Sequence record: PZ445540.1
Reading direction: 5' to 3' (one strand)
Source of the DNA: a phage
DNA length: 40,233 bases
Shown here: piece after piece, positions 7,719 to 34,858 of the stretch
Layout: each line of letters begins with the position of its first letter
Numbering within the stretch: position 1 is the first letter of the stretch
Notes under the pieces: model-generated
The model's input: only the letters and a program-made list of their open reading frames with translations
Databases searched by the model: none
What the model was told of the DNA's origin: nothing
Translations under genes and position numbers: made by a program

Positions 7719-10700
7719 TTGATGGCAACATTACGTGAGTTAATAATCAAAATTTCCGCTAACTCGCAGTCATTCCAGTCGGAAATTTCCCGCGCCTCAC
7801 GCATGGGGCAGGATTATTACCGAACCATGCAAAATGGCGGTCGGCAGGCTGCCGCTGCCGCCCGAGAGAGCGAAAGGGCGTTATCTGATCTGACCGCTGG
7901 GTTTGCATCGGCAGGAAGAGCCGCTGCTGCTGCTACGGCCGCTTTTGCGACTGGTAAGCTCGTGCAGATTGCTGATGAGTGGAATTCAGTAAACGCCCGT
8001 CTTAAGCAGGCATCATCTTCAGCTGATGATTTTGCTGCCTCTCAGCGCCAGTTAATGGAAATCAGCCAAAGAACTGGCACCGCGTTTTCAGACAACGCAA
8101 ACCTTTTTTCACGCGCAGCTGCTTCAATGCGTGAGTTTGGGTATAGCTCTGACGAAGTTCTGAAAATTACCGAAGCTGTTTCTACCGGCCTTAAACTTTC
8201 GGGGGCTAATACTCAGGAAGCGAGTTCTGTTATCACTCAATTCAGCCAGGCTCTGGCGCAGGGCGTTCTTCGCGGTGAAGAATTCAACGCCGTTAACGAA
8301 GCAGGTGATCGTGTTATCCGCGCACTTGCCGCCGGAATGGGCGTGGCCCGCAAAGACCTGAAGAGCATGGCTGACCAGGGGCAACTTACGATTGATAAGG
8401 TTGTTCCTGCATTAATGAGCCAGTTGGGCTCATTACAGGGTGAGTTTGCCAGCATGCCGCAAACAGTTTCCGGATCCCTGCAAAAAGTCACAAACTCGTT
8501 CATGGCATGGGTTGGAGGTGTCAACCAGGCTACAGGTGCTACCGATGCGCTATCTGGTGGCCTAGACGGAGTTGCCCAAACGCTTGATTCATTTACCTCT
8601 TCGGCAGTAAGCGGCGCACTAAGTGATGTTGCAGACAATATGTCCACGATCACAACAGTGGCGGGTGCACTTGTTGGCGTTGGGCTGGCAAGGTATCTCA
8701 GTGGAGTAGTAACTAGCGCCACGAGCGCAACCGGCGCGCTAATTTCTGCGGCTAAGTCAGAGGTTGCTCTTGCCGTTGCACAGGATAAGGCTGCACAGTC
8801 TGCCGTTGCCGCCTCAAGGGCGGAGGTTTATAGGGCTCAGCAAGCTGTACAGAGATCGCGTAGCGCAGATGTTCAGGCTGCGCAGCAAGAGAAAATTGCT
8901 GCGGCAGAAGCAAAAGTCACTGCAGCCCAGGCCAGGCTGACTACCGCTCTAGCCAGCGGTTCTGCTACAGAGAAAGTCAGGGCCAGAACTGCACTTGAGC
9001 GTGCACAGGCAGGGCTGGTGGCTGCAAAAAATTCTGACGCTCAAGCTGCTGCAGAAAGGCGTCTGTCCGCGACCCAGGCTTCCTTAAACCGGAACCTTGC
9101 AAACCGTGTTTCGGCTCAAAGCAATCTCAATAGCGTGACATCCGTCGGCACTCGGCTCATGAGTGGTGCACTTGGTCTCATCGGTGGAGTTCCTGGTTTA
9201 GTTATGTTGGGTGCTGGAGCCTGGTATGCGATGTATCAAAACCAGGAGCAGGCACGTCGCTCTGCCCAGGAATACGCCAGTCAAATCGACGAAATACGAG
9301 AAAAAACTTCCCGCATGTCTTTGTCTGAAACAGACGACAATAGGGGGAGAACTGTTGGTGCTCTGGTAGAGCAAAATCGTTTGGTTGATGAGCAAGCCAA
9401 AAAGGTTGGTGAGCTGAAGAACCAGATCGACGATTTGAATGCATCGCGTGGAAAACCGGGCATTACCAGCGAGAACGATGCAAATATACTGAGAGCGATA
9501 GCTATCGTTACGGATCAACTTGCTGTTGAAGAGGGAAAATTAAATGACATGCGAGATAAATCTCGCGGCATACAGCAGGCTCTCGAAGAAATTGAGCGAC
9601 GTCGCAATGATTTAATACGCGAACAAGCCTGGCGACAGAATGCGGTATATCAGTCGATGATCATGATGAATGGTCAGCATACTGAATTTAACCGTCTGCT
9701 GGGGCTGGGAAATCAGCTATTAATGGCCCGGCAAGGGCTGGCGAACGTCCCTCTCAGACTTCCTCAGGCCGACCTCGACAAAAAGCAAACCGATGCCCTC
9801 GAAAAGAGCCGTCGGGATCTTGAGTTGTCACGCCTGAAGGGTGAGGCCAAAGAGCGCCTGCGTCTGAGTTATGCAGCCGATGACCTGGGGTTAACCAGTG
9901 ATCCGCAATTCCAGACAGGCCGTCAGGAGTTGATTAATAACGGTCTTGCTGAATGGCGGAATAATGAGGCCAACAAACCTAAGGCGAAGGGTGGTAAAAC
10001 CGAAGGCGAGAAAACCGAGGATGTGTATAAGCGCCTTATCAAGCAGCAAAAAGAGCAGATTGCCCTGCAAGGCCAGAATACTGAACTGGCGAAGGTTAAA
10101 TACCAGGTCAGCCAGGGCGAGCTTGCTTCTCTGACAGAAGCCCAGAAAAAGACGGTATTGCAGAATGCTGCGCTCATTGACCAGGTTAAATTGCGTGAGC
10201 AACTGCGAAATTACGAAGCCAACCTTGCTGACAGTAACGCCAGCGCCCGCGCAGCCAATGAAGCGCAACTGCTGGGCTATGGGCAGGGAACCAGGTTCCG
10301 TGAAAGACTTCAGGAGCAGTTCAATCTGCGTAAGGAGTTTGAGCAGAAGAATACCGATCTTCTCCGCCAGCGTCAGGCTGGTGAAATCGACGAGACGTTC
10401 TATCAGCAGGGGCTGGCACTTAATAAGCGCTACCTCGAAGAGCGCCTGCGCGACCAGGAGGGATATTACGCAGCTTCTGATGCTCAGCGTGACGACTGGA
10501 TGACGGGACTGTCTGAGGGTTATGCGAACTGGGTGGACGAAGCCACTGATTATTCTTCCATGGCCGCTGACGGCATGAAGCAGGCCATGGGTGGCGCGGT
10601 CACCACGATCACCGACATGCTCAATGGCAACGTTGACAGCTGGAAGGACTGGGGCGTGAGCGTACTGAAGATTATCCAGAACGTTCTGGTGAACATGGCT

Positions 10701-11198
10701 GTTGCTAATGGCGTCAGCTCAATTGGATCACTGTTCAGTTTTGGTGCCTCGTCAGCCGCAACCGCCAGCAGCGGTACCGCTATTCAGAATGCTGGCGCGA
10801 ACTTCACATTTAATGCGAAGGGTAATGTTTACGACTCTCCGTCCCTGAGCGCTTACAGCAATGGCGTTTTCCAGACGCCTCAGCTGTTTGCTTTTGCCAA
10901 AGGCGCAGGGGTTTTTGCCGAGGCTGGGCCGGAAGCGATCATGCCACTTACCCGCGCGCCGGATGGTTCTCTCGGCGTTCGTGCGGTCGGAGGTGGCGGC
11001 GGTCAGTCTGTATCTTCGGCGCCACAGGTTTATATCACCATCGATGGCAACGGCAACACTCAAACACAGGCCTCGCCAGGCCTTGAGCAATTTGGTGCCG
11101 AGGTCGGGGAATTTGTTGATCGACGTTATAAGCAGAATGTGATGCGTGACATTCGTCCCGGCGGCGACATCTGGAACGCAATGAAAGGAACCCGATAA
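7719..11198 (+). CDS. tail tape measure protein
   Basis: 1159 aa, Ala/Gln-rich coiled-coil protein with C-terminal Gly-rich segment; canonical position. Confidence 0.9.
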   Translation: MMATLRELIIKISANSQSFQSEISRASRMGQDYYRTMQNGGRQAAAAARESERALSDLTAGFASAGRAAAAATAAFATGKLVQIADEWNSVNARLKQASSSADDFAASQRQLMEISQRTGTAFSDNANLFSRAAASMREFGYSSDEVLKITEAVSTGLKLSGANTQEASSVITQFSQALAQGVLRGEEFNAVNEAGDRVIRALAAGMGVARKDLKSMADQGQLTIDKVVPALMSQLGSLQGEFASMPQTVSGSLQKVTNSFMAWVGGVNQATGATDALSGGLDGVAQTLDSFTSSAVSGALSDVADNMSTITTVAGALVGVGLARYLSGVVTSATSATGALISAAKSEVALAVAQDKAAQSAVAASRAEVYRAQQAVQRSRSADVQAAQQEKIAAAEAKVTAAQARLTTALASGSATEKVRARTALERAQAGLVAAKNSDAQAAAERRLSATQASLNRNLANRVSAQSNLNSVTSVGTRLMSGALGLIGGVPGLVMLGAGAWYAMYQNQEQARRSAQEYASQIDEIREKTSRMSLSETDDNRGRTVGALVEQNRLVDEQAKKVGELKNQIDDLNASRGKPGITSENDANILRAIAIVTDQLAVEEGKLNDMRDKSRGIQQALEEIERRRNDLIREQAWRQNAVYQSMIMMNGQHTEFNRLLGLGNQLLMARQGLANVPLRLPQADLDKKQTDALEKSRRDLELSRLKGEAKERLRLSYAADDLGLTSDPQFQTGRQELINNGLAEWRNNEANKPKAKGGKTEGEKTEDVYKRLIKQQKEQIALQGQNTELAKVKYQVSQGELASLTEAQKKTVLQNAALIDQVKLREQLRNYEANLADSNASARAANEAQLLGYGQGTRFRERLQEQFNLRKEFEQKNTDLLRQRQAGEIDETFYQQGLALNKRYLEERLRDQEGYYAASDAQRDDWMTGLSEGYANWVDEATDYSSMAADGMKQAMGGAVTTITDMLNGNVDSWKDWGVSVLKIIQNVLVNMAVANGVSSIGSLFSFGASSAATASSGTAIQNAGANFTFNAKGNVYDSPSLSAYSNGVFQTPQLFAFAKGAGVFAEAGPEAIMPLTRAPDGSLGVRAVGGGGGQSVSSAPQVYITIDGNGNTQTQASPGLEQFGAEVGEFVDRRYKQNVMRDIRPGGDIWNAMKGTR

Positions 11199-11200
11199 TT

Positions 11201-11539
11201 ATGGCCATTGAAACTTTCACCTGGTGCCCTCGGATTAACGCGGAGGCTGATACAAGTTTCCGCGTCAGGAAAGCCCAGTTTGGCGATGGATATGAGCAGG
11301 TTTCAGGGGATGGATTGAACACCAGAACTCAGCAGTGGACGCTTAACTTCACTGGCAACGAAACCTACATTTCTGCCATTAAGTCTTTTCTCGACAGGCA
11401 TGAAGGAACGAAAGCCTTTCAGTGGAAGCCGCCGCTCGAGCCTTTGGGTTTGTATCGTTGCGAAACGTATAAACCCACCGGGCTGGGCGCGGGGAAATTC
11501 AACCTTGAAGCAACATTCATCCAGGCATTTAAACCATGA
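11201..11539 (+). CDS. minor tail protein (lambda M-like)
   Basis: 112 aa immediately after the tape measure; size and position match lambda gpM. Confidence 0.75.
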   Translation: MAIETFTWCPRINAEADTSFRVRKAQFGDGYEQVSGDGLNTRTQQWTLNFTGNETYISAIKSFLDRHEGTKAFQWKPPLEPLGLYRCETYKPTGLGAGKFNLEATFIQAFKP

Positions 11540-12294
11540 GCTTAAACGCAGACTATCAGAAGCTTGAATCCGGAAACGATGTTCGTCTGATTGAGGTGGA
11601 CGGTTCTTCCTTTGGGCTAACGGACGTTCTCCGCTTTCACAATTACCGCATTCCCCACACGGAAGCGGAAATCATCGCCGCTGGTGGGGATGAGTCCAAG
11701 CTTCCGGCGAAACCAATCTGGTGGCAGGGAAATGAATACGCCGCCTGGCCGTATCAGTTGGAAGGCCTGGAAAAATCAACCAGTGGGAGCAATGCAACGC
11801 CATCACTGACGGTTGCGAACATCGAAAGCTCTATTTCTGCCCTGTGTCTTGCCTATGACGATCTGCTGCAGGCGAAAGTCACTATTCACGACACAAAAGA
11901 GAAATATCTCGATGCCAGAAATTTCGCGGACGGCAACCCCACAGCAGACCCGACTCAGGAAAAGCTGCAGGTCTGGTATATCGACGGGAAAACGGGCGAG
12001 CTTGCCGGTGAAACCGTTGAATTTGTTCTGTCCAGCCCGATGGACCTGCAGGGGCAAATGATCCCGACGCGACAGCTTCATTCCCTGTGTACCTGGTGCA
12101 TCCGGAATAAATATCGTACCGGCGACGGCTGCGACTATGCCGGCACCCGCTATTTCGATAAAAACAACAACCCGGTAAGCGATCCGTCGCTGGATGAATG
12201 CAACGGCACGCTGACGGCCTGCAAACTCCGATTCGGCGAAAATAACGAACTCTCGTTTGGTGGCTTCCCGGGCACGTCTTTGATCAGGAGCTGA
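11536..12294 (+). CDS. minor tail protein (lambda L-like)
   Basis: 252 aa; C-terminal Cys cluster (CTWC...C...C...C) as in lambda gpL; overlapping start. Confidence 0.78.
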   Translation: MSLNADYQKLESGNDVRLIEVDGSSFGLTDVLRFHNYRIPHTEAEIIAAGGDESKLPAKPIWWQGNEYAAWPYQLEGLEKSTSGSNATPSLTVANIESSISALCLAYDDLLQAKVTIHDTKEKYLDARNFADGNPTADPTQEKLQVWYIDGKTGELAGETVEFVLSSPMDLQGQMIPTRQLHSLCTWCIRNKYRTGDGCDYAGTRYFDKNNNPVSDPSLDECNGTLTACKLRFGENNELSFGGFPGTSLIRS

Positions 12295-12295
12295 T

Positions 12296-13006
12296 ATGCG
12301 GCAGAAAACCATTGATGCCATTATGGCGCATGCTGCAGCTGAATATCCTCGCGAATGCTGCGGCGTGGTGGCGCAGAAAAGCCGCGTTGAACGTTATTTC
12401 CCGTGCCGGAATCTTGCCGCGGCGCCGGAGGACAATTTTGTCCTTTGCCCAGAAGACTATGCAGCTGCTGAGGACTGGGGCACGGTGATCGCCATCGCGC
12501 ACAGTCACCCTGATGCCACGACACAGCCGAGCGAACTGGATAAAGCGCAATGCGATGCAACGCTTTTACCCTGGCACATCGTGAGCTGGCCTGAGGGGGA
12601 TTTACGCACCATCCAGCCGCGCGGAGAACTGCCGCTTCTGGAGCGTCCGTTTGTGCTTGGACACTTCGACTGCTGGGGGCTGGTAATGAGCTATTTCCGG
12701 CAAACACATGGGATTGAGTTGCACGACTACCGGGTTGATTATCCCTGGTGGGAAAACGACTATCCGGATAACTTCTATCAGGACTGTTGGTATGAGTGCG
12801 GATTCCGTGAATTCGACGGGCCACCGAAACCCGGAGATATGGTGATCATGCAGGTCCAGGCTGATAAGTGGAATCACGCGGGGATTCTTCTGGAGGGAAA
12901 TATGCTACTCCACCACCTGTATGGACATCTGAGCCAGCGCGTGCCGTATGGTGGCTATTGGCAGGAAAGAACGATGAAGATTTTACGTTACAAATCTCTG
13001 TGCTAA
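12296..13006 (+). CDS. tail assembly protein (lambda K-like; JAB/MPN + NlpC/P60)
   Basis: 236 aa; 'AIAHSHPD' JAMM-type motif and Cys/His hydrolase-like C-terminal half. Confidence 0.78.
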   Translation: MRQKTIDAIMAHAAAEYPRECCGVVAQKSRVERYFPCRNLAAAPEDNFVLCPEDYAAAEDWGTVIAIAHSHPDATTQPSELDKAQCDATLLPWHIVSWPEGDLRTIQPRGELPLLERPFVLGHFDCWGLVMSYFRQTHGIELHDYRVDYPWWENDYPDNFYQDCWYECGFREFDGPPKPGDMVIMQVQADKWNHAGILLEGNMLLHHLYGHLSQRVPYGGYWQERTMKILRYKSLC

Positions 13007-13038
13007 CCTCTTGTTAATTTAAACAAGGGGATGATGGA

Positions 13039-13560
13039 ATGAGGAATGTTTTAATTTTAGCGTTTGTCACATTTTTGTTTGGCTGCACTGAAAGAGCGCG
13101 ACCAGCAGATGAAATCGATCATGAAAGTGGACTGGTTAAAATATTCAGCACTAAAAATTTTAATACTGCGCAAGATAGGGCTGATATTCTTTGCGGCAAA
13201 AAATCATATTATGTGAAAGCTCTTCATGAAAGTAATTTGGTACTTTTAAGAAACAACCTCTCCGACGTATATTTGTTCGATTACATTCCTTTTCAGTGTG
13301 AGCTGAAAGCTGCCGCAAACGCGGGAAACTCTGAAGCTAAAGCGCTCTATGACAAAAAACTTACTGATGCATATCGTAATCTTGAAGAGTCTAAAAGAAA
13401 TCAGTACGAAGCGCATAAAGCTTATGCCAAAAAGCATGGGATTGATTCATATAGCACAGTAAACCCTGATGGCAGCATAGAGGCTCACACCATAGATTCC
13501 AGCGGTAACGCTTGTCATAGCACTGTCGGTATATATGGAGGGGAAACAGTCTGTGACTAA
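13039..13560 (+). CDS. lipoprotein of unknown function (moron)
   Basis: 173 aa; N-terminal signal with lipobox LFGC; ~38% GC; inserted between the K-like and I-like tail genes. Confidence 0.5.
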   Translation: MRNVLILAFVTFLFGCTERARPADEIDHESGLVKIFSTKNFNTAQDRADILCGKKSYYVKALHESNLVLLRNNLSDVYLFDYIPFQCELKAAANAGNSEAKALYDKKLTDAYRNLEESKRNQYEAHKAYAKKHGIDSYSTVNPDGSIEAHTIDSSGNACHSTVGIYGGETVCD

Positions 13561-13597
13561 TTTATGTTGCTTTAATTAGTCAATTTTCGAGGTTCAT

Positions 13598-14176
13598 ATG
13601 ACAGAAAATATGACTCAAATTGAACTCGGTGGCATTCTGGGTAAAACATTTGGGAAAATGCACTACCGGCTTATTAGTAAGACCAGTGAGGCTACTCGCA
13701 GTTTAGCGGCAACACTGGACGGTTTTGAGAAGTTTATGATCTCCAGCCAGCGGAGGGGATTAACATATGCTGTTTTTAAGGGTAAGAAAAATATAGGTCT
13801 GGATGATTTAGGCTTTCCAGTTTCCGGTGAAGTAATCCGGATTGTCCCTGTAGTAATAGGAAGTAAAAAAGCGGGATTACTGCAAACAATTCTCGGAGCG
13901 GTATTAGTGGTAGTGGGTGTGGTTACCTCTGCATATGGTGGAGCACCATTGATCGGCGCAGGTATTGGTATGATGGCTGGTGGTATCGTCCAAATGCTAT
14001 CCCCTCAGCCAACCGGACTGGCCAGCAAGCAAAGTGCAGATAACCGCGCATCATACGCGTTCGGTGGAGTGACAAACACCGCTGCTCAGGGCTACCCGGT
14101 ACCGCTGCTTTATGGTCGCCGGCGAATCGGTGGGGCAATTATTTCCGCCGGAATTTATGTCGAGGATCAGCAATGA
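13598..14176 (+). CDS. tail assembly protein (lambda I-like)
   Basis: 192 aa; position between the K-like gene and J; Gly-rich hydrophobic C-terminal half. Confidence 0.65.
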   Translation: MTENMTQIELGGILGKTFGKMHYRLISKTSEATRSLAATLDGFEKFMISSQRRGLTYAVFKGKKNIGLDDLGFPVSGEVIRIVPVVIGSKKAGLLQTILGAVLVVVGVVTSAYGGAPLIGAGIGMMAGGIVQMLSPQPTGLASKQSADNRASYAFGGVTNTAAQGYPVPLLYGRRRIGGAIISAGIYVEDQQ

Positions 14177-29078: not shown

Positions 29079-29276
29079 ATGTCACATCCAATCACTACCG
29101 AAAACCAAATAAAGCCATTGGATATCGATTATCGCGATCCGCGCGGTGTGATTGTGCATGTCACCGGCTGGAATCGGGATAAGCAGCAGGTGTACTTCAC
29201 CAGGCAGGATTATCCGCATGAATGCATGCAGCCTGTCTGGAAGTTTCAAAATTATTTCAGGAGGGTTGTGGAGTGA
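29079..29276 (+). CDS. hypothetical protein (cII position)
   Basis: ATG 29079 with RBS GAGGTG just after the cro stop, 65 aa; no HTH recognised. Confidence 0.4.
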   Translation: MSHPITTENQIKPLDIDYRDPRGVIVHVTGWNRDKQQVYFTRQDYPHECMQPVWKFQNYFRRVVE

Positions 29277-30205
29277 GCAATTTCTTACAGCTCGTTGATC
29301 GTCCAATAGCCTTTCAACGGTCCTTCGTTCGCCTTGGCGTGGGTATTACAGGTGCATTGCTATTGTCACAGATTGTCTATTGGCAGAACCGCATGGAAGG
29401 GAATTGGTTCTACAAAACCCAGTCAGATCTCGAAGAAGAGACTGGATTAACGCGTTACGAACAAGAGGGAGCGCGTAAAAAGCTGGTTTCCTGTGGCGTA
29501 CTGGAAGAAGCAAAACGTGGCATCCCAGCAAAATTATATTTCAGAGTAAACCAGGAGCGCTTGGAAGAACTTCTACTCGGCGAAAACCAGCATGCAGGTA
29601 TGGGGAAAACCAACAAACAAGGATGCGGAATTTCCGCAAACAGTGATGCGGAAAACCAGCATGCAGGTATGGGGAAAACCAACGAGCAGTCATGTGGAAA
29701 TTCCGCATCCATTCATACAGTAGATTACCAGGAGACTACACAGAAGATTAATACAGAGAATAAATATCTTGGTGCATCGGCTGAAGCCGACACACCGAAA
29801 GTGAAATCTTCAACTGATTATTCTCCTGCATTTGAAGAAGCCTGGCAGGCATACCCAAAACGTAGCGGTGGAAATAACAAGCTAAGCGCATTCAAAGCCT
29901 GGAACGCACGTATTAAACAGGGCGTAAAACCAGAGACGATGCTGGAAGGGGTTAAGCGCTACGCAGCTTTCATGGCCTCTGAGGGAAAGATCGGTACTTC
30001 GTTCGTCAAGCAGGCGGCGACGTTCTTCGGGCCGGATAAACATTTCGATGAACCGTGGCTGGTAGAGACCCAGGAAAACAAAGTCCCTACCCGACAAGAC
30101 CAGTCCCGCTACGAGTGGTACGCAAAGTCTGATGACGGCTCTGCCGAAGTGTTTATCAATCAGTCAGCGATCGATCGCATGAACCGTGGCGGGTATCGCC
30201 CATGA
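29273..30205 (+). CDS. replication initiator / replisome organiser with internal iteron-like repeats
   Basis: Start set at GTG 29273 (RBS AGGAGG 8 nt upstream, overlapping the upstream stop); N-terminal HTH-like region; two 69-bp tandem repeats inside the ORF. Confidence 0.6.
   Translation: MSNFLQLVDRPIAFQRSFVRLGVGITGALLLSQIVYWQNRMEGNWFYKTQSDLEEETGLTRYEQEGARKKLVSCGVLEEAKRGIPAKLYFRVNQERLEELLLGENQHAGMGKTNKQGCGISANSDAENQHAGMGKTNEQSCGNSASIHTVDYQETTQKINTENKYLGASAEADTPKVKSSTDYSPAFEEAWQAYPKRSGGNNKLSAFKAWNARIKQGVKPETMLEGVKRYAAFMASEGKIGTSFVKQAATFFGPDKHFDEPWLVETQENKVPTRQDQSRYEWYAKSDDGSAEVFINQSAIDRMNRGGYRP
29576..29720 (+). repeat. two ~69-bp tandem repeats with internal palindrome (candidate origin iterons)
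   Basis: gaaaaccagcatgcaggtatggggaaaaccaac occurs at 29582 and 29651; each unit ends in a tgcggaatttccgca-type palindrome; AT-rich stretch follows. Confidence 0.5.
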
Positions 30206-30312: not shown

Positions 30313-32184
30313 ATGAGCCCAGCTGAACTATCAGAAAAACTATGGGATAACGCTGAACGCGTCGCTAAGTTTCTCCTTCCGAAAGGACATCTGGAGGGGA
30401 AGGAGTGGTGTGCTGGCAATACGAACGGTGACTCAGGCAAAAGCCTCAAGGTCAATATCGGCGGTAAAAAATCATGGGCTGACTTTGCCAGCGGAGACAG
30501 TGGTGACCTGCTGGATCTCTGGGTGCTGGTGCGTAATTGCCAACTGCACGATGCAATGCGAGAGGCGAAAGAGTTTCTTGGCCTGAAAGATGACGATCAC
30601 CACTTCGAAGCGAAGAAAAAAACGTTCTCTCGCCCGACGAAGAAGGGCGTTAAATCGGCCAGCAAATGCTACGACTATCTTGCTTCACGTGGCATTACCC
30701 GTGAAACGGCCGATCGTTTTAAAGTGACAGATGCGGTGGTCTGGTACCACGACGAAAACCGAGAGGTGCCTGCCGTGGCATTTCCGTATATCCGGAACGG
30801 CGAACTGCTTCAGGTAAAACGTATCGGTACCGAACGGCCAAACGGCAAAAAGCTAATTATGGCTGAAGCTGATTGTGAACCATGCCTGTTTGGCTGGCAG
30901 GCGCTGGATAAAAATACCCGCCTGGTAGTGCTGTGCGAGGGGGAGATTGACTGCATGACCTTCACGCAGCTTGGCTATGATGCCCTGTCTGTTCCCTTTG
31001 GCGGCGGTAAGGGTGCCAAACAGCAGTGGATTGAATATGAATACCATAACCTCGATCGCTTCCAGGAAATTTGGCTGTGCCTGGACAACGACGATGTAGG
31101 CCGTGAAGCTGCAAAAGAAATCGCCAGACGTCTTGGGGAACATCGTTGCCGCATGGTTGAACTTCCCCACAAAGATATCAACGATTGCCTGATGAACGGC
31201 ATGGACAGCGACTCCATTCTGGAATACATGGAGCGCGCCAAATTCTTCGATCCCGATGAGCTTTGCTCAGCAGGGGACTTGCTTCAGGAAACTATCGAGG
31301 CATTCGAACATCGGGATACCGGTCTGTTTACAAGCCCATGGGCTTCGCTGAACAACAACTTTAAGTTCCGTGCCGGTGAACTGACCCTCGTCAATGGGGT
31401 GAATGGACATGGAAAAACAGAGCTCGTTGGACATATCGCGATTGATGCGATGAGTCAGGGCGTCAGGACGTGTATTGCTTCTCTGGAGCTTAAACCAGGC
31501 AAAATGCTTGCCCGACTCACGCGGCAAACCATCTGCACTTCCTCACCGAAACGTGAAGAAATCATTATGACCAACGAATGGTTTTCTGACCGCCTTTGGG
31601 TATTCAAACTTACCGGAACGGCCAAAGCAGACCGGCTTCTTGAGATTTTTGCCTATGCCCGGCGCCGCTATGGCATTGAGCTGTTCGTCATAGATAACCT
31701 GGCTAAATGTGGCTTAGACGAAGAAGACTACACAGGTCAGAAGGACTTCATCGATACGCTGTGCGACTTCAAGAACGAGCATAACTGTCACGTCCTGCTG
31801 GTTACCCACGCCAGAAAAACAAACGACTCCGCTCCAACCGGAAAGATGGACGTAAAAGGCACTGGCGCCTTAACCGACATGCCCGACAACGTTATGGCCG
31901 TCTGGCGCAACATTCCCCGTGAGCTGGCGCAGAGAAAAGCGGATCGTATGGGTTATGAGAGCCTCGACAAAGACGAACAGGCCGCGATCAATCTCCCCGC
32001 CTCAATGATTCGTTTGTTGAAGCAACGAGAAGGCGAAGGGTGGATCGGAGACATCGGAGCTAATTTCGACTCTCGCTCTCACCAGTTCCTGGAAGGCGAG
32101 AAAAAACCATTTAACTACCTGGTCGGTAAGCCGCAAAGCGAGCTTGATCTCGAGTGGGAAGCCAGCAACGTAACGAGGGTTTGA
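30313..32184 (+). CDS. bifunctional DNA primase-helicase (TOPRIM + DnaB/RecA-like)
   Basis: 623 aa; TOPRIM motifs ('VVLCEGEIDCMT', 'CLDNDDVGREAA'); Walker A 'GVNGHGKTE' and Walker B 'ELFVIDNLAK'. Confidence 0.82.
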   Translation: MSPAELSEKLWDNAERVAKFLLPKGHLEGKEWCAGNTNGDSGKSLKVNIGGKKSWADFASGDSGDLLDLWVLVRNCQLHDAMREAKEFLGLKDDDHHFEAKKKTFSRPTKKGVKSASKCYDYLASRGITRETADRFKVTDAVVWYHDENREVPAVAFPYIRNGELLQVKRIGTERPNGKKLIMAEADCEPCLFGWQALDKNTRLVVLCEGEIDCMTFTQLGYDALSVPFGGGKGAKQQWIEYEYHNLDRFQEIWLCLDNDDVGREAAKEIARRLGEHRCRMVELPHKDINDCLMNGMDSDSILEYMERAKFFDPDELCSAGDLLQETIEAFEHRDTGLFTSPWASLNNNFKFRAGELTLVNGVNGHGKTELVGHIAIDAMSQGVRTCIASLELKPGKMLARLTRQTICTSSPKREEIIMTNEWFSDRLWVFKLTGTAKADRLLEIFAYARRRYGIELFVIDNLAKCGLDEEDYTGQKDFIDTLCDFKNEHNCHVLLVTHARKTNDSAPTGKMDVKGTGALTDMPDNVMAVWRNIPRELAQRKADRMGYESLDKDEQAAINLPASMIRLLKQREGEGWIGDIGANFDSRSHQFLEGEKKPFNYLVGKPQSELDLEWEASNVTRV

Positions 32185-32187
32185 GAT

Positions 32188-33003
32188 ATGGAACTTGAAG
32201 CATCACTAAAACACTTTAGCCCTCAGGGTATGCACATCAGCGACGACGTGAAAGGAACCTCTCCGGACCGCCTTACAGGAACAGATGTAATGGCGGCGAT
32301 TGGCACCACCAGCAGCCGTGCGCGCTTCGGCCTGGCGGCGTTCTTCGGTAAAGCGGGAATCAGCAAAACCGATGAACAGCTCGCAGTTCAGGCGCTGGCG
32401 CGATATGCGATGGATGTCGCACCGAAGAATGTTCGCAAAGCAGCTGGTGGCCAGTTCGGATGGTGTATGCAGATGCTGGCGCAATTTGCCTTTGCTGATT
32501 ATTCCCGTTCGGCGGCTACCAGCGTGACGTGTCACAGCTGCAGCGGTACCGGACGAACAACCCGCGAGCAGATTACCCGCAAGGTTTCGTACCCATGGGG
32601 TAAAGCTCCATACTGGGCCTGCCGCTCTCGTGCTGTTCGACCGTCTGACTGGGAGCAGTGGACGGAGGTAACAGAGGTTGTACCGGCGGTCTGTGATGCT
32701 TGCGATGGCATGGGAACGATCAGCGCCCGTTGTCGTTGCGGCGGTAAAGGCGAGGTTCTAGACCGCAAAGCGACTAAAGACCGCGGCGCACCGGTTTTCA
32801 AAACGTGTGAACGTTGCTCTGGTAATGGCTTCTCTGCTATCTCCTCGGCGACGGTACACCGTGCCATTCTGAAGCGTCTCCCGGACCTTCATCAGTCCTC
32901 ATGGTCACGCAACTGGAAACCCTTCTATGAAATGCTGGTGGACACTTTGCGTCAGGGGGAGCGTCATGCTGCTTTAGAATTTGAGAAGGCAACAACTTAT
33001 TGA
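32188..33003 (+). CDS. Cys-rich protein with four DnaJ-type CxxCxGxG repeats (possible late-gene antiterminator)
   Basis: 271 aa; CSGTGR, CDGMGT, CGGKGE, CSGNGF repeats; sits where lambdoid Q genes sit, upstream of the late leader and lysis genes. Confidence 0.45.
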   Translation: MELEASLKHFSPQGMHISDDVKGTSPDRLTGTDVMAAIGTTSSRARFGLAAFFGKAGISKTDEQLAVQALARYAMDVAPKNVRKAAGGQFGWCMQMLAQFAFADYSRSAATSVTCHSCSGTGRTTREQITRKVSYPWGKAPYWACRSRAVRPSDWEQWTEVTEVVPAVCDACDGMGTISARCRCGGKGEVLDRKATKDRGAPVFKTCERCSGNGFSAISSATVHRAILKRLPDLHQSSWSRNWKPFYEMLVDTLRQGERHAALEFEKATTY

Positions 33004-33117
33004 TGTGATCGGAACAAATAGCGACACTTTTTTGCACGTTAGTGTTGACTTTGCATAAAACTGTCCTGTATGCTTCTAATCGTGGAAGATACCGTCCAAA
33101 CGAAATTAATCATTGAA

Positions 33118-33145
33118 ACCCTGCCTCGGCGGGGTTTTTGCTTTT
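33118..33145 (+). terminator. intrinsic terminator 1 in the late leader region
   Basis: ccctgcctcggcgggg (one G-U wobble) followed by TTTTTGCTTTTC. Confidence 0.5.
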
Positions 33146-33150
33146 CTAAG

Positions 33151-33178
33151 GCTGCCAATGGGTGGCCTTTTTTGTTTC
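33151..33178 (+). terminator. terminator-like hairpin 2
   Basis: gctgccaatgggtggc (stem includes wobble pairs) followed by CTTTTTTGTTT. Confidence 0.35.
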
Positions 33179-33390
33179 CCCTCGTTCTGAGAGGACTCAT
33201 GGCGATGATGTATTGACCGCTACAATGGATTAGTCGTAACTTATTATTGTGGTGAATCCTTTCTAAGCGAAAGGGCGTTCCAGTCAACTGCTATCTGCAG
33301 GTATGCGCGCGGCTTTGCTGACTGTGGTTGAGTCACCGGGAGGCACCCGGCACCATGACAATAACAATATAAGTTTCAAATTCCTTGAGA

Positions 33391-33418
33391 GCCTGCTATA
33401 AAAAGCAGGCCTTTTTTT
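33391..33418 (+). terminator. intrinsic terminator 3
   Basis: gcctgctataaaaagcaggc followed by CTTTTTTT. Confidence 0.65.
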
Positions 33419-33575
33419 ATGGTTTTGTAATCTGCTGCTACGCTTTGAGTTGTGAGATGCGCCTACCTCTCTGGGGGTTCTCCTGAACCTATAGTGAATC
33501 AGCCCGATACTGTCTCACTCAGGTCAGTTAGCAAGACTCACGACTACCTACCTTACTTACTAATAGTCACTCATT

Positions 33576-33603
33576 AGCCCGCCTTCAAAAGCGGGCTTTT
33601 TTT
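33576..33603 (+). terminator. intrinsic terminator 4 (upstream of the holin)
   Basis: agcccgccttcaaaagcgggct followed by TTTTTTT. Confidence 0.65.
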
Positions 33604-33650
33604 ATTCCCCTCATCACTGAGAGGATTCACGGCAATAAGAGGGGGACTAG

Positions 33651-34046
33651 ATGTCCGATCCTGTTTCTGGCACGACAGTAGCGGCTGGTGGTCTGATGGG
33701 GGCCAGCGTGTTCGGCCTGGCAACCGGCATAGATTACGGTGTGGTGTTTGGCGCATTCGCTGGTGCGGTGTTCTACGTCGCTACGGCGGTTAATATCAGC
33801 CGCCTTAAGCTGGTGGGCTACTTCATCACCTCATTCATCTTCGGCGTTATCGGCGCGCCACTGCTCGGCTCTTACTTCTCCAAATGGACGGGGTATAGCG
33901 ACAGGCCACTTGATGCGCTGGGCGCGGTAATCGTAGCCGCTATTGCTATTAAGCTGCTGACGTTCGTCAACAGTCAGGATTTGGGTAGCCTGTTTGGAAT
34001 TCTCTCGCGTTTACGTGGTGGAGGGGCCAGCAATGGTAACAAGTGA
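33651..34046 (+). CDS. holin
   Basis: 131 aa with three hydrophobic TM-like segments; first gene of the lysis cassette; RBS AGAGGGGG. Confidence 0.55.
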   Translation: MSDPVSGTTVAAGGLMGASVFGLATGIDYGVVFGAFAGAVFYVATAVNISRLKLVGYFITSFIFGVIGAPLLGSYFSKWTGYSDRPLDALGAVIVAAIAIKLLTFVNSQDLGSLFGILSRLRGGGASNGNK

Positions 34047-34338
34047 TCCGAGTGCGATGGCAAACGCAATTATCTCTGCTGTGATCGTTATTGCACTGAT
34101 GTTCTACCAGCGCGGCGGGGCGAGACATCGCCCTCTGATATCGCTGATGGCGTATTTCACGGTGCTGGTATACGCCAGCGTCCCTTTCCGTTATTTGTTC
34201 GGCCTGTACCATGAATCCCACTGGTTTGTGGTGCTGGTGAACGTCCTGATATGCGCCGCCGTTCTCTGGGCTCGGGGAAACGTAGCACGCATCATTGACG
34301 TCCTGAGGCATTCGCATGACCAAAGACGAAATTTTTAA
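34033..34338 (+). CDS. holin-like / antiholin membrane protein
   Basis: ATG 34033 with RBS GGAGGGG, ~101 aa; 2-3 TM segments; overlaps both neighbouring genes. Confidence 0.45.
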   Translation: MVTSDPSAMANAIISAVIVIALMFYQRGGARHRPLISLMAYFTVLVYASVPFRYLFGLYHESHWFVVLVNVLICAAVLWARGNVARIIDVLRHSHDQRRNF

Positions 34339-34858
34339 TGCCATCCTCGGTAAAGAGGGCGGCTACGTTAATCACCCTGACGATAAGGGCGGTCCAACTA
34401 ACTGGGGGATCACACAAGCGGTAGCTCGCGCCCACGGATTTTTCGGGGATATGCGAAACCTGACCCGCCAGCAGGCGCTAGATATCCTGACGGCCGACTA
34501 CTGGACAGGGCCACGCTTCGACCTTGTTTCTGAGGTATCACCAGCCATCGCTGCCGAACTCTGCGACACAGGCGTAAACATGGGCCCATCAGTTCAGACC
34601 AAATGGTTTCAGCGCTGGCTGAACGTGTTCAACATTCAGGGCACGCTCTATCCCGATCTGATTGCCGATGGCTTTATCGGTCCGCGAACCATCAGCGCGT
34701 TAAAAAGCTATCTTTCCCGGCGCGGAAAAGAGGGTGAGCTGGTTATGCTTCGGGCCCTGAATTGTAGCCAGGGTCAGCGTTATCTTGAGCTGGCAGAGCA
34801 GCGTAGCGCGAACGAAACATTTGTTTATGGCTGGGTAAAGGAGCGGGTGGTTATATGA
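34316..34858 (+). CDS. endolysin (glycoside hydrolase family 108-like with peptidoglycan-binding domain)
   Basis: N-terminal 'ILGKEGGYVNHPDDKGGPTNWGIT' matches the GH108 signature; 180 aa. Confidence 0.85.
   Translation: MTKDEIFNAILGKEGGYVNHPDDKGGPTNWGITQAVARAHGFFGDMRNLTRQQALDILTADYWTGPRFDLVSEVSPAIAAELCDTGVNMGPSVQTKWFQRWLNVFNIQGTLYPDLIADGFIGPRTISALKSYLSRRGKEGELVMLRALNCSQGQRYLELAEQRSANETFVYGWVKERVVI

Follow-up and report, generated by a model that had tools for sequence, protein, structure and literature searches.

What does a phage gene encode that lies between the replication genes and the late leader, where lambdoid late antiterminators are found, and whose product carries repeated cysteine motifs resembling those of the DnaJ chaperones? 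This question is raised by an open reading frame at 32188..33003 (+ strand, ATG to TGA, 271 aa) in the 40,233-nt stretch of phage DNA analysed here (PZ445540.1, hereafter the window). The ORF was found exactly as an earlier reading, made from the letters of the DNA only (the sequence-only reading), had reported it.

Genomic position and family assignment

The gene, designated Q below, and its neighbours are as follows:

29222..30205, O-like replication initiator, upstream of Q
30313..32184, fused Toprim/DnaB-like primase-helicase, directly upstream of Q
32188..33003, + strand, Q gene, in all probability the late-gene transcription antiterminator, Q-lambda family (PF03589), long phi80-like form, 271 aa
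33651..34046, holin-family ORF (Phage_holin_8), the first lysis gene, given in GenBank as hypothetical only
33994..34338, holin-family ORF (3TM, Phage_holin_3_7)
34316..34858, endolysin (GH108 / PG_binding_3)

The start codon of Q is located 4 nt past the stop codon of the primase-helicase gene and is preceded by a ribosome-binding site (GAGGG). Downstream, Q is followed by a terminator-rich, non-coding leader of 650 bp, then by the two holin-family ORFs and the endolysin gene. The position of a Q gene, which the sequence-only reading had assigned to this ORF, is thus confirmed on both sides, with replication genes upstream and the late leader and lysis genes downstream.

Several nin genes separate the replication genes from Q in lambda, P22 and phi80, whereas in this phage the nin region is absent (32184-32190) and Q adjoins the primase-helicase gene directly. 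The Phage_holin_8 and Phage_holin_3_7 ORFs represent different holin families and overlap by 53 nt ahead of the endolysin gene. Two minus-strand ORFs inside Q (32206..32535 and 32532..32867) are considered spurious, being unsupported and antisense to conserved coding sequence.

Q proteins belong to three unrelated families, Q21 (PF06530), Q-lambda (PF03589) and Q82 (PF06323), between which no sequence relatedness is detectable (Yin et al. 2022, PMC9388147). The product of the gene matches PF03589 in two stretches with 182 bits (cutoff 26.7, E=2.2e-54), and PHROG 127, 'anti-termination protein Q-like', is matched end to end (E=3e-100). A phmmer search of PDB sequences retrieved lambda Q itself (7UBM/7UBN, 4MO1, 7UBJ; E=1e-36). 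This Q is distinct from the Q21 and Q82 families and from Pseudomonas AlpA; neither PF06530 nor PF06323 was matched in the Pfam search at E<=0.1. Membership in Q82 or Q21 is rejected, because PF03589 is the Q-lambda family (PMC9388147) and lambda Q was matched directly.

An AlphaFold2 model built with 48 diverse homologues as input is confident (mean pLDDT 90.5, pTM 0.78) and displays the Q-lambda fold, a helical body with a zinc-ribbon arm. When the model was submitted to Foldseek, Q-lambda structures were the sole good matches. The best of them is chain Q of 7UBN (E=6e-13, TM 0.77, target-normalised), the 'engaged' loading complex with NusA, where Q has a folded N-terminus (PMC9388147). Structure prediction with comparison to the Q families, the check that had been proposed for this gene, therefore points to Q-lambda and not to DnaJ. 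In all probability the gene is the late antiterminator Q of this phage, a member of the Q-lambda family in its phi80-like long form. Of the 'unusual zinc-finger late regulator' suggested earlier, the late regulator is upheld by homology and fold; the protein is not unusual, being an ordinary member of Q-lambda.

The gene is already annotated and of known kind, and its long form is a common, catalogued variant. Escherichia phage SaltyDalty (PP925825.1), which is 100% identical to the window across shared DNA, carries it as 'anti-termination protein Q-like protein'. The Q protein of Salmonella prophage Fels-1 (STM0904.1n) is 86% identical. In Fels-1 and the Escherichia phages Fraca, LMessi, Fostie and CharmingMan, whose DNA is 80-95% identical, Q is annotated as antitermination protein Q, and many enterobacterial prophage relatives are named 'antitermination protein (Q)' in GenBank/RefSeq. 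The record for Q of phi80 (gp17, JX871397 41137..41946, 269 aa) describes it as 'late transcription antitermination protein; similar to lambda Q' and also annotates pR', the site bound by Q and a terminator. Judging from its citation in PMC9388147, Guo & Roberts 2004 deals with phi80 Q.

Zinc knuckles and protein architecture

Lambda Q (207 aa; PDB 4MO1, 7UBJ-7UBN) shares PF03589 with this protein, as well as a genomic place upstream of pR'/tR' and the lysis genes, and its N-terminal nozzle-forming segment, helical body and zinc-ribbon arm are homologous. It has one zinc ribbon of two knuckles, whereas here two more knuckles and a long beta-hairpin are present. The following parts can be distinguished:

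32188..32319, + strand, N-terminal segment, aligned to lambda Q 1-44, its role assigned by homology
32521..32721, + strand, extra zinc-ribbon module, codons ~112-178, absent from lambda Q according to an alignment gap, the split phmmer alignment and the model
32722..32835, + strand, family-wide zinc ribbon ('Q arm'), codons ~179-216, with knuckle 3 (C182, C184; CxC) and knuckle 4 (C207, C210)
32836..33000, + strand, C-terminal part of the helical 'Q body', codons ~217-271, aligned to lambda Q 153-207

Over its first 60 residues the protein shares 48% identity with lambda Q. In the model this stretch forms a helix (3-10), a low-confidence loop and a second helix (31-44), in agreement with the helix 1-11, loop 12-31 and helix 32-42 of the lambda Q N-terminus (PMC9388147).

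The protein contains three exact CxxCxGxG motifs (C115-HSC-SGTG, C169-DAC-DGMG and C207-ERC-SGNG). The third repeat in order, C182-R-C184-GGKG, is a CxCxGxG variant with one residue between the cysteines. The 'four DnaJ-type CxxCxGxG repeats' noted earlier thus comprise three canonical motifs, far above chance, and one variant. Among 200,000 composition-preserving shuffles of the Q protein, two motifs occurred in 14 and at least three in none, so the number of motifs is not due to chance.

In the 48-sequence alignment C207, C210, G186, G212 and G214 are invariant, and C182 and C184 nearly so. All eight cysteines are kept in 39 of the 48 aligned family members, and the four of knuckles 1 and 2 are likewise present in 39/48. 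At knuckle 3 (codons 182-184, 32731-32739) CxC occurs in 33 of the 47 aligned members with both cysteines. Most family members, including this Q, therefore have CxC where lambda Q has CxxC at the matching knuckle, which according to the alignment is a small but systematic difference in ligand spacing.

In lambda Q, two knuckles, C118xxC121 and C144xxC147, make up the zinc ribbon of the arm (residues 114-152). This arm contacts positions 11-13 of the QBE, while residues 110-112, 117 and 122-126 contact the zinc-binding domain of the RNA polymerase (RNAP) beta' subunit (PMC9388147). The four ligands C118, C121, C144 and C147 are matched in the alignment by C182, C184, C207 and C210, which could accordingly serve as zinc ligands here. 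The segment of knuckles 3 and 4 is regarded as the family-wide arm, because the 22-residue spacing from C184 to C207 is exactly the inter-knuckle spacing of lambda and the sequence is similar.

The extra module is built from knuckle 1 (C115, C118), knuckle 2 (C169, C172) and a long beta-hairpin between them. The hairpin is predicted by the model to have strands at 123-134 and 157-168 and a tip KVSYPWGKAPYW..SRAVRPSDWEQWT bearing two short helices. In the multiple alignment lambda Q is without query residues ~115-181, which makes ~65 residues extra in this Q. The phmmer alignment is split, query 1-125 corresponding to lambda Q 1-128 and query 179-256 to lambda Q 115-193. Residues 115-128 of lambda Q, its first knuckle, thus align to both knuckle 1 and knuckle 3 of the query.

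In the cysteine-rich (CR) domain of DnaJ, knuckle pairing is interleaved (1+4 and 2+3). Here zinc pairing is predicted to be 1+2 and 3+4, giving two tandem zinc ribbons and not a DnaJ-style interleaving, because of the secondary-structure topology and the spacing identical to that of the lambda arm. The two 12-residue strands can pair only with each other, so knuckles 1 and 2 would be brought together. Co-occurrence of knuckles 1 and 2 was judged non-discriminating as evidence on the pairing, since short forms always have two knuckles and the aligner places the first one. The DnaJ-like motifs would therefore represent the zinc knuckles of the Q arm, present as two pairs since a second ribbon is inserted beside the family-wide one.

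The C-terminal body is modelled as helices 220-228 and 236-269. The lambda Q body carries a helix-turn-helix which reads QBE positions 1-4, and a DNA-reading role could be ascribed to the C-terminal body of this Q as well. Divergence is highest in this region, with 19% identity to phi80 Q and 30% to lambda Q, as expected of a specificity determinant.

Candidate late promoter, leader and proposed mechanism

The region between Q and the lysis genes contains the following elements:

33045..33074, + strand, candidate late promoter pR', with -35 TTGACT (33045-33050), an 18-nt spacer and -10 TATGCT (33069-33074)
33051..33068, + strand, promoter spacer, putative Q-binding element, including TTGCATAAAACTG (33051-33063)
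33078..33085, + strand, candidate sigma-dependent pause element, AATCGT then GG
33115-33138 and 33148-33169, + strand, two tandem intrinsic terminators, tR' equivalents, each with a T tract, ~35-90 nt past the putative start
33218..33421, + strand, STnc100-family sRNA-like element (Rfam RF02076, 59.3 bits, gathering score 47), ending on the third terminator
33391-33410, + strand, third intrinsic terminator
33576-33597, + strand, fourth intrinsic terminator, shortly before the start of the first lysis gene (33651)

The candidate pR' starts 42 nt past the Q stop codon and is the sole sigma-70-like site in the 32900-33700 scan. Both hexamers and the spacer between them are conserved, in sequence and in arrangement, in Fels-1, Fraca, LMessi, Klebsiella phage ST340-VIM1phi10.1 and Cronobacter phage ENT39118, the Q proteins of which are 65-86% identical. 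Two other promoters were rejected. The pair TTGCAT (33051) as -35 and TCTAAT as -10 is without A at position 2 of the -10, is not conserved in the relatives and is absent from the scan; an STnc100 promoter near TACAAT (33221-33226) has no good -35 and is likewise absent from the scan.

The 13-mer TTGCATAAAACTG matches the lambda pR' spacer TTGAATAAAATTG at 11/13 bases. It occurs once in the window; with ~0.3 chance matches expected, this match is weak alone. By analogy, the QBE could be placed in the pR' spacer.

The pause-like element follows the pattern nAT(C/T)(G/A)T at a fixed 3 nt past the -10 in all six relatives, then GG in five and GC in Fels-1. It reads AATCGT-GG here and resembles the elements of lambda (AACGAT-GGG) and phi80 (AACGCT-GGG), with which it aligns. 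The distance of 3 nt from the -10 contrasts with 6-7 nt in lambda and phi80, so that the element is 3-4 nt closer here, and the transcription start or the pause element would therefore be mis-assigned. The Fels-1/Fraca/LMessi group shares the promoter hexamers and the pause-like element, whereas the leaders diverge from about +5 to +30 and carry other terminators and cargo. Beyond the pause-like element the sequences of the relatives diverge, and each reaches its own intrinsic terminator at equal distance but of different sequence.

In phi80 the -35 of the annotated pR' begins 43 nt past the Q stop, the Q-binding site is situated between -35 and -10, and the annotated terminator lies 53-81 nt after the -10. 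In both phages the -35 is 42-43 nt past the stop and a terminator follows the -10 at ~45-80 nt, and in both the binding site is assigned to the spacer, by annotation in phi80 and putatively here. Their Q proteins agree in length class, in the inserted hairpin and in the order of the four knuckles, the third being CxC in both. The phages differ in the pause-like element, which is 7 nt from the -10 in phi80 but 3 nt from it here, and in Q itself, with 40% identity over the whole protein and 19% in the C-terminal body. The annotated Q-site spacer of phi80, TCGCGGA, is not conserved here either, so the DNA specificity of this Q is probably different from that of phi80 Q.

The terminator scan gave five overlapping calls against 0.8 expected, and the first two terminators form GC-rich hairpins of 9-10 bp according to RNA folding. 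Terminators are annotated in the homologous region of HK639. The gene is therefore located directly upstream of a promoter-like site, promoter-proximal terminators and lysis genes, the layout of Q-lambda genes.

The mechanism best supported for this Q is very probably the lambda paradigm described in PMC9388147. Q would be made from the early rightward operon and would bind as a monomer to the QBE in the spacer of pR' (33045-33074) through the helix-turn-helix of the body and the zinc-ribbon arm. It would then dock on RNA polymerase that is paused near the promoter in a sigma70-dependent manner. Together with NusA, the N-terminal ~44 residues could fold up as a torus ('nozzle') inside the RNA-exit channel, blocking formation of terminator hairpins and linking Q topologically to the transcript. 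The polymerase modified in this way would pass the four leader terminators and transcribe the holin, endolysin, spanin and morphogenesis genes. The basis for this assignment is homology, fold, cysteine conservation, gene position and the conserved promoter/terminator layout; from the lambda paradigm we infer the DNA site, the pause site, NusA dependence, nozzle formation, zinc binding and knuckle pairing.

The sRNA-like element in the leader belongs to a family that is also located downstream of Q in Fels-1 (three copies, L003 4108-4321, 4522-4644 and 5645-5863) and in HK639 (L002 2482-2687), despite the unrelated Q of the latter. It may represent a leader-derived sRNA. StxS is an sRNA derived from the pR' leader of Stx phages (PMC7547250), and STnc100 is connected with the prophage PasD sRNAs in a 2026 preprint.

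HK639, with an unrelated Q of 165 aa, shares with the window only 33235-33645 (88% identity), which bounds the Q-specific cassette to 33004-33234. Since the distal leader, comprising two terminators and the STnc100-like element, is common to HK639, whose Q differs, the leader module recombines independently of the Q-promoter cassette, with a clear mosaic boundary near 33235. Stx phages carry tRNA genes in the late leader. A tRNA gene is situated directly past Q and the first terminator in HK639 (L002 2065-2136); the window is without tRNA genes, both in the leader and elsewhere. Three small 'hypothetical protein' CDSs are placed in the leader by the SaltyDalty record (33070-33216, 33303-33401 and 33452-33577). 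They are probably not genes, because they overlie intrinsic terminators and the sRNA-like element.

The additional zinc ribbon and alternative readings

An exhaustive search of 1.84 billion representatives at 50% identity yielded 250 relatives, 59 of them near-full-length. Among these 59, Cx(1-2)CxGxG motifs number four in 20, three in 13 and two in 19. Across the family (48-sequence alignment), knuckles 1 and 2 are joined by a linker of 10 to 59 residues, and the Q proteins of Fraca and LMessi (260 aa) have a shorter hairpin than this Q. The core of the insert, residues 131-160 (KVSYPWGKAPYW...SRAVRPSDWEQWT), is 77% identical to phi80 Q, compared with 19-57% elsewhere and 40% overall. Because the hairpin core is 77% identical while the C-terminal body is 19% identical, a conserved host partner is suggested: the hairpin tip could meet a conserved host component and the body could read a phage-specific DNA site.

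Such a partner leads to the possibility that the extra zinc ribbon provides a loading step distinct from that of lambda Q. The conserved tip would contact RNAP (the beta' zinc-binding domain or the flap), sigma region 4, NusA or upstream DNA, and the need for NusA, the place of the pause or the geometry of the QBE would be altered in comparison with lambda Q. Besides the conserved core, which argues for a probably host-side partner, this possibility is favoured by the location of the insert next to the residues that contact the beta' zinc-binding domain in lambda, by the preservation of SAA and the first-knuckle GTGR at motif 1, and by the spacing between the -10 and the pause-like element, which is unlike that of lambda. 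Literature searches for a four-motif or DnaJ-like Q, or for this module, returned nothing relevant; the absence of a description of the module in the literature searched is consistent with a distinct function too. However, the variation of the linker from 10 to 59 residues means that a long hairpin is not universally required, and phi80 Q, which has the hairpin, is treated as a lambda-like Q as far as the reference list of PMC9388147 and the GenBank annotation indicate. A distinct loading step is therefore possible but rather doubtful.

The solved structures of the Q-lambda family are all of the short lambda form. Because lambda residues 115-128 align equally to knuckles 1 and 3, it is possible that lambda-type short Qs were derived from long ones by a knuckle-to-knuckle deletion. 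The second zinc ribbon is present in 20 of the 59 diverse representatives, and its role in RNAP loading is undescribed in the literature searched. The residual interest of the gene is therefore structural and concerns this role; as a discovery, a member of a textbook family matters little.

A DnaJ-like or chaperone-like protein, the cysteine repeats of which would bind unfolded proteins and assist, for example, morphogenesis or replication, was the other function envisaged by the sequence-only reading. The motif pattern does resemble the DnaJ CR domain (PF00684), with repeated CxxCxGxG knuckles, four per domain, and the likeness extends to a weak local resemblance in sequence and structure: PF00684 scored 26.9 bits (E=6e-6), TIGR02349 (DnaJ_bact) 20.7 bits, and Foldseek gave a weak local match to the CR domain of DnaJA2 (E=2.5, prob 0.51, 80 columns). 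These scores are all sub-threshold (32.7 for PF00684 and 377 for TIGR02349), as is that of NF008035 (15.3 vs 338). No J domain was found, PF00226 giving no match at E<=0.1 and the translation containing no 'HPD' tripeptide. The spacing differs from that of the CR domain, knuckle pairing probably differs too, and the motifs are embedded here in a Q-lambda fold. With DnaJ models below cutoff, no J domain and a Q-lambda fold, a chaperone function is very improbable and this part of the earlier proposal is not borne out. CxxCxGxG repeats in a lambdoid Q-position protein accordingly indicate the zinc-ribbon arm of Q-lambda, not a DnaJ-type chaperone.

Equally improbable is that Q has decayed or lost its function and that the late genes are expressed otherwise, a reading for which nothing specific speaks except the unusual CxC at knuckle 3, itself the majority state in the family, and against which stand the intact ORF, the conservation of the eight cysteines and the family-invariant glycines, the isolation of the phage as a plaque-former with a complete genome, and the four terminators that separate the sole promoter-like site from the lysis genes, so that an antiterminator is needed.

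With regard to the closest record, the window corresponds to the SaltyDalty genome reverse-complemented and permuted, save a 3.3-kb stretch (10514-13838) missing from that record, which comprises the 3' part of the tape-measure gene and minor tail genes. The tape-measure CDS runs off the end of the SaltyDalty record, and the deposited genome therefore probably contains an assembly deletion at its termini.
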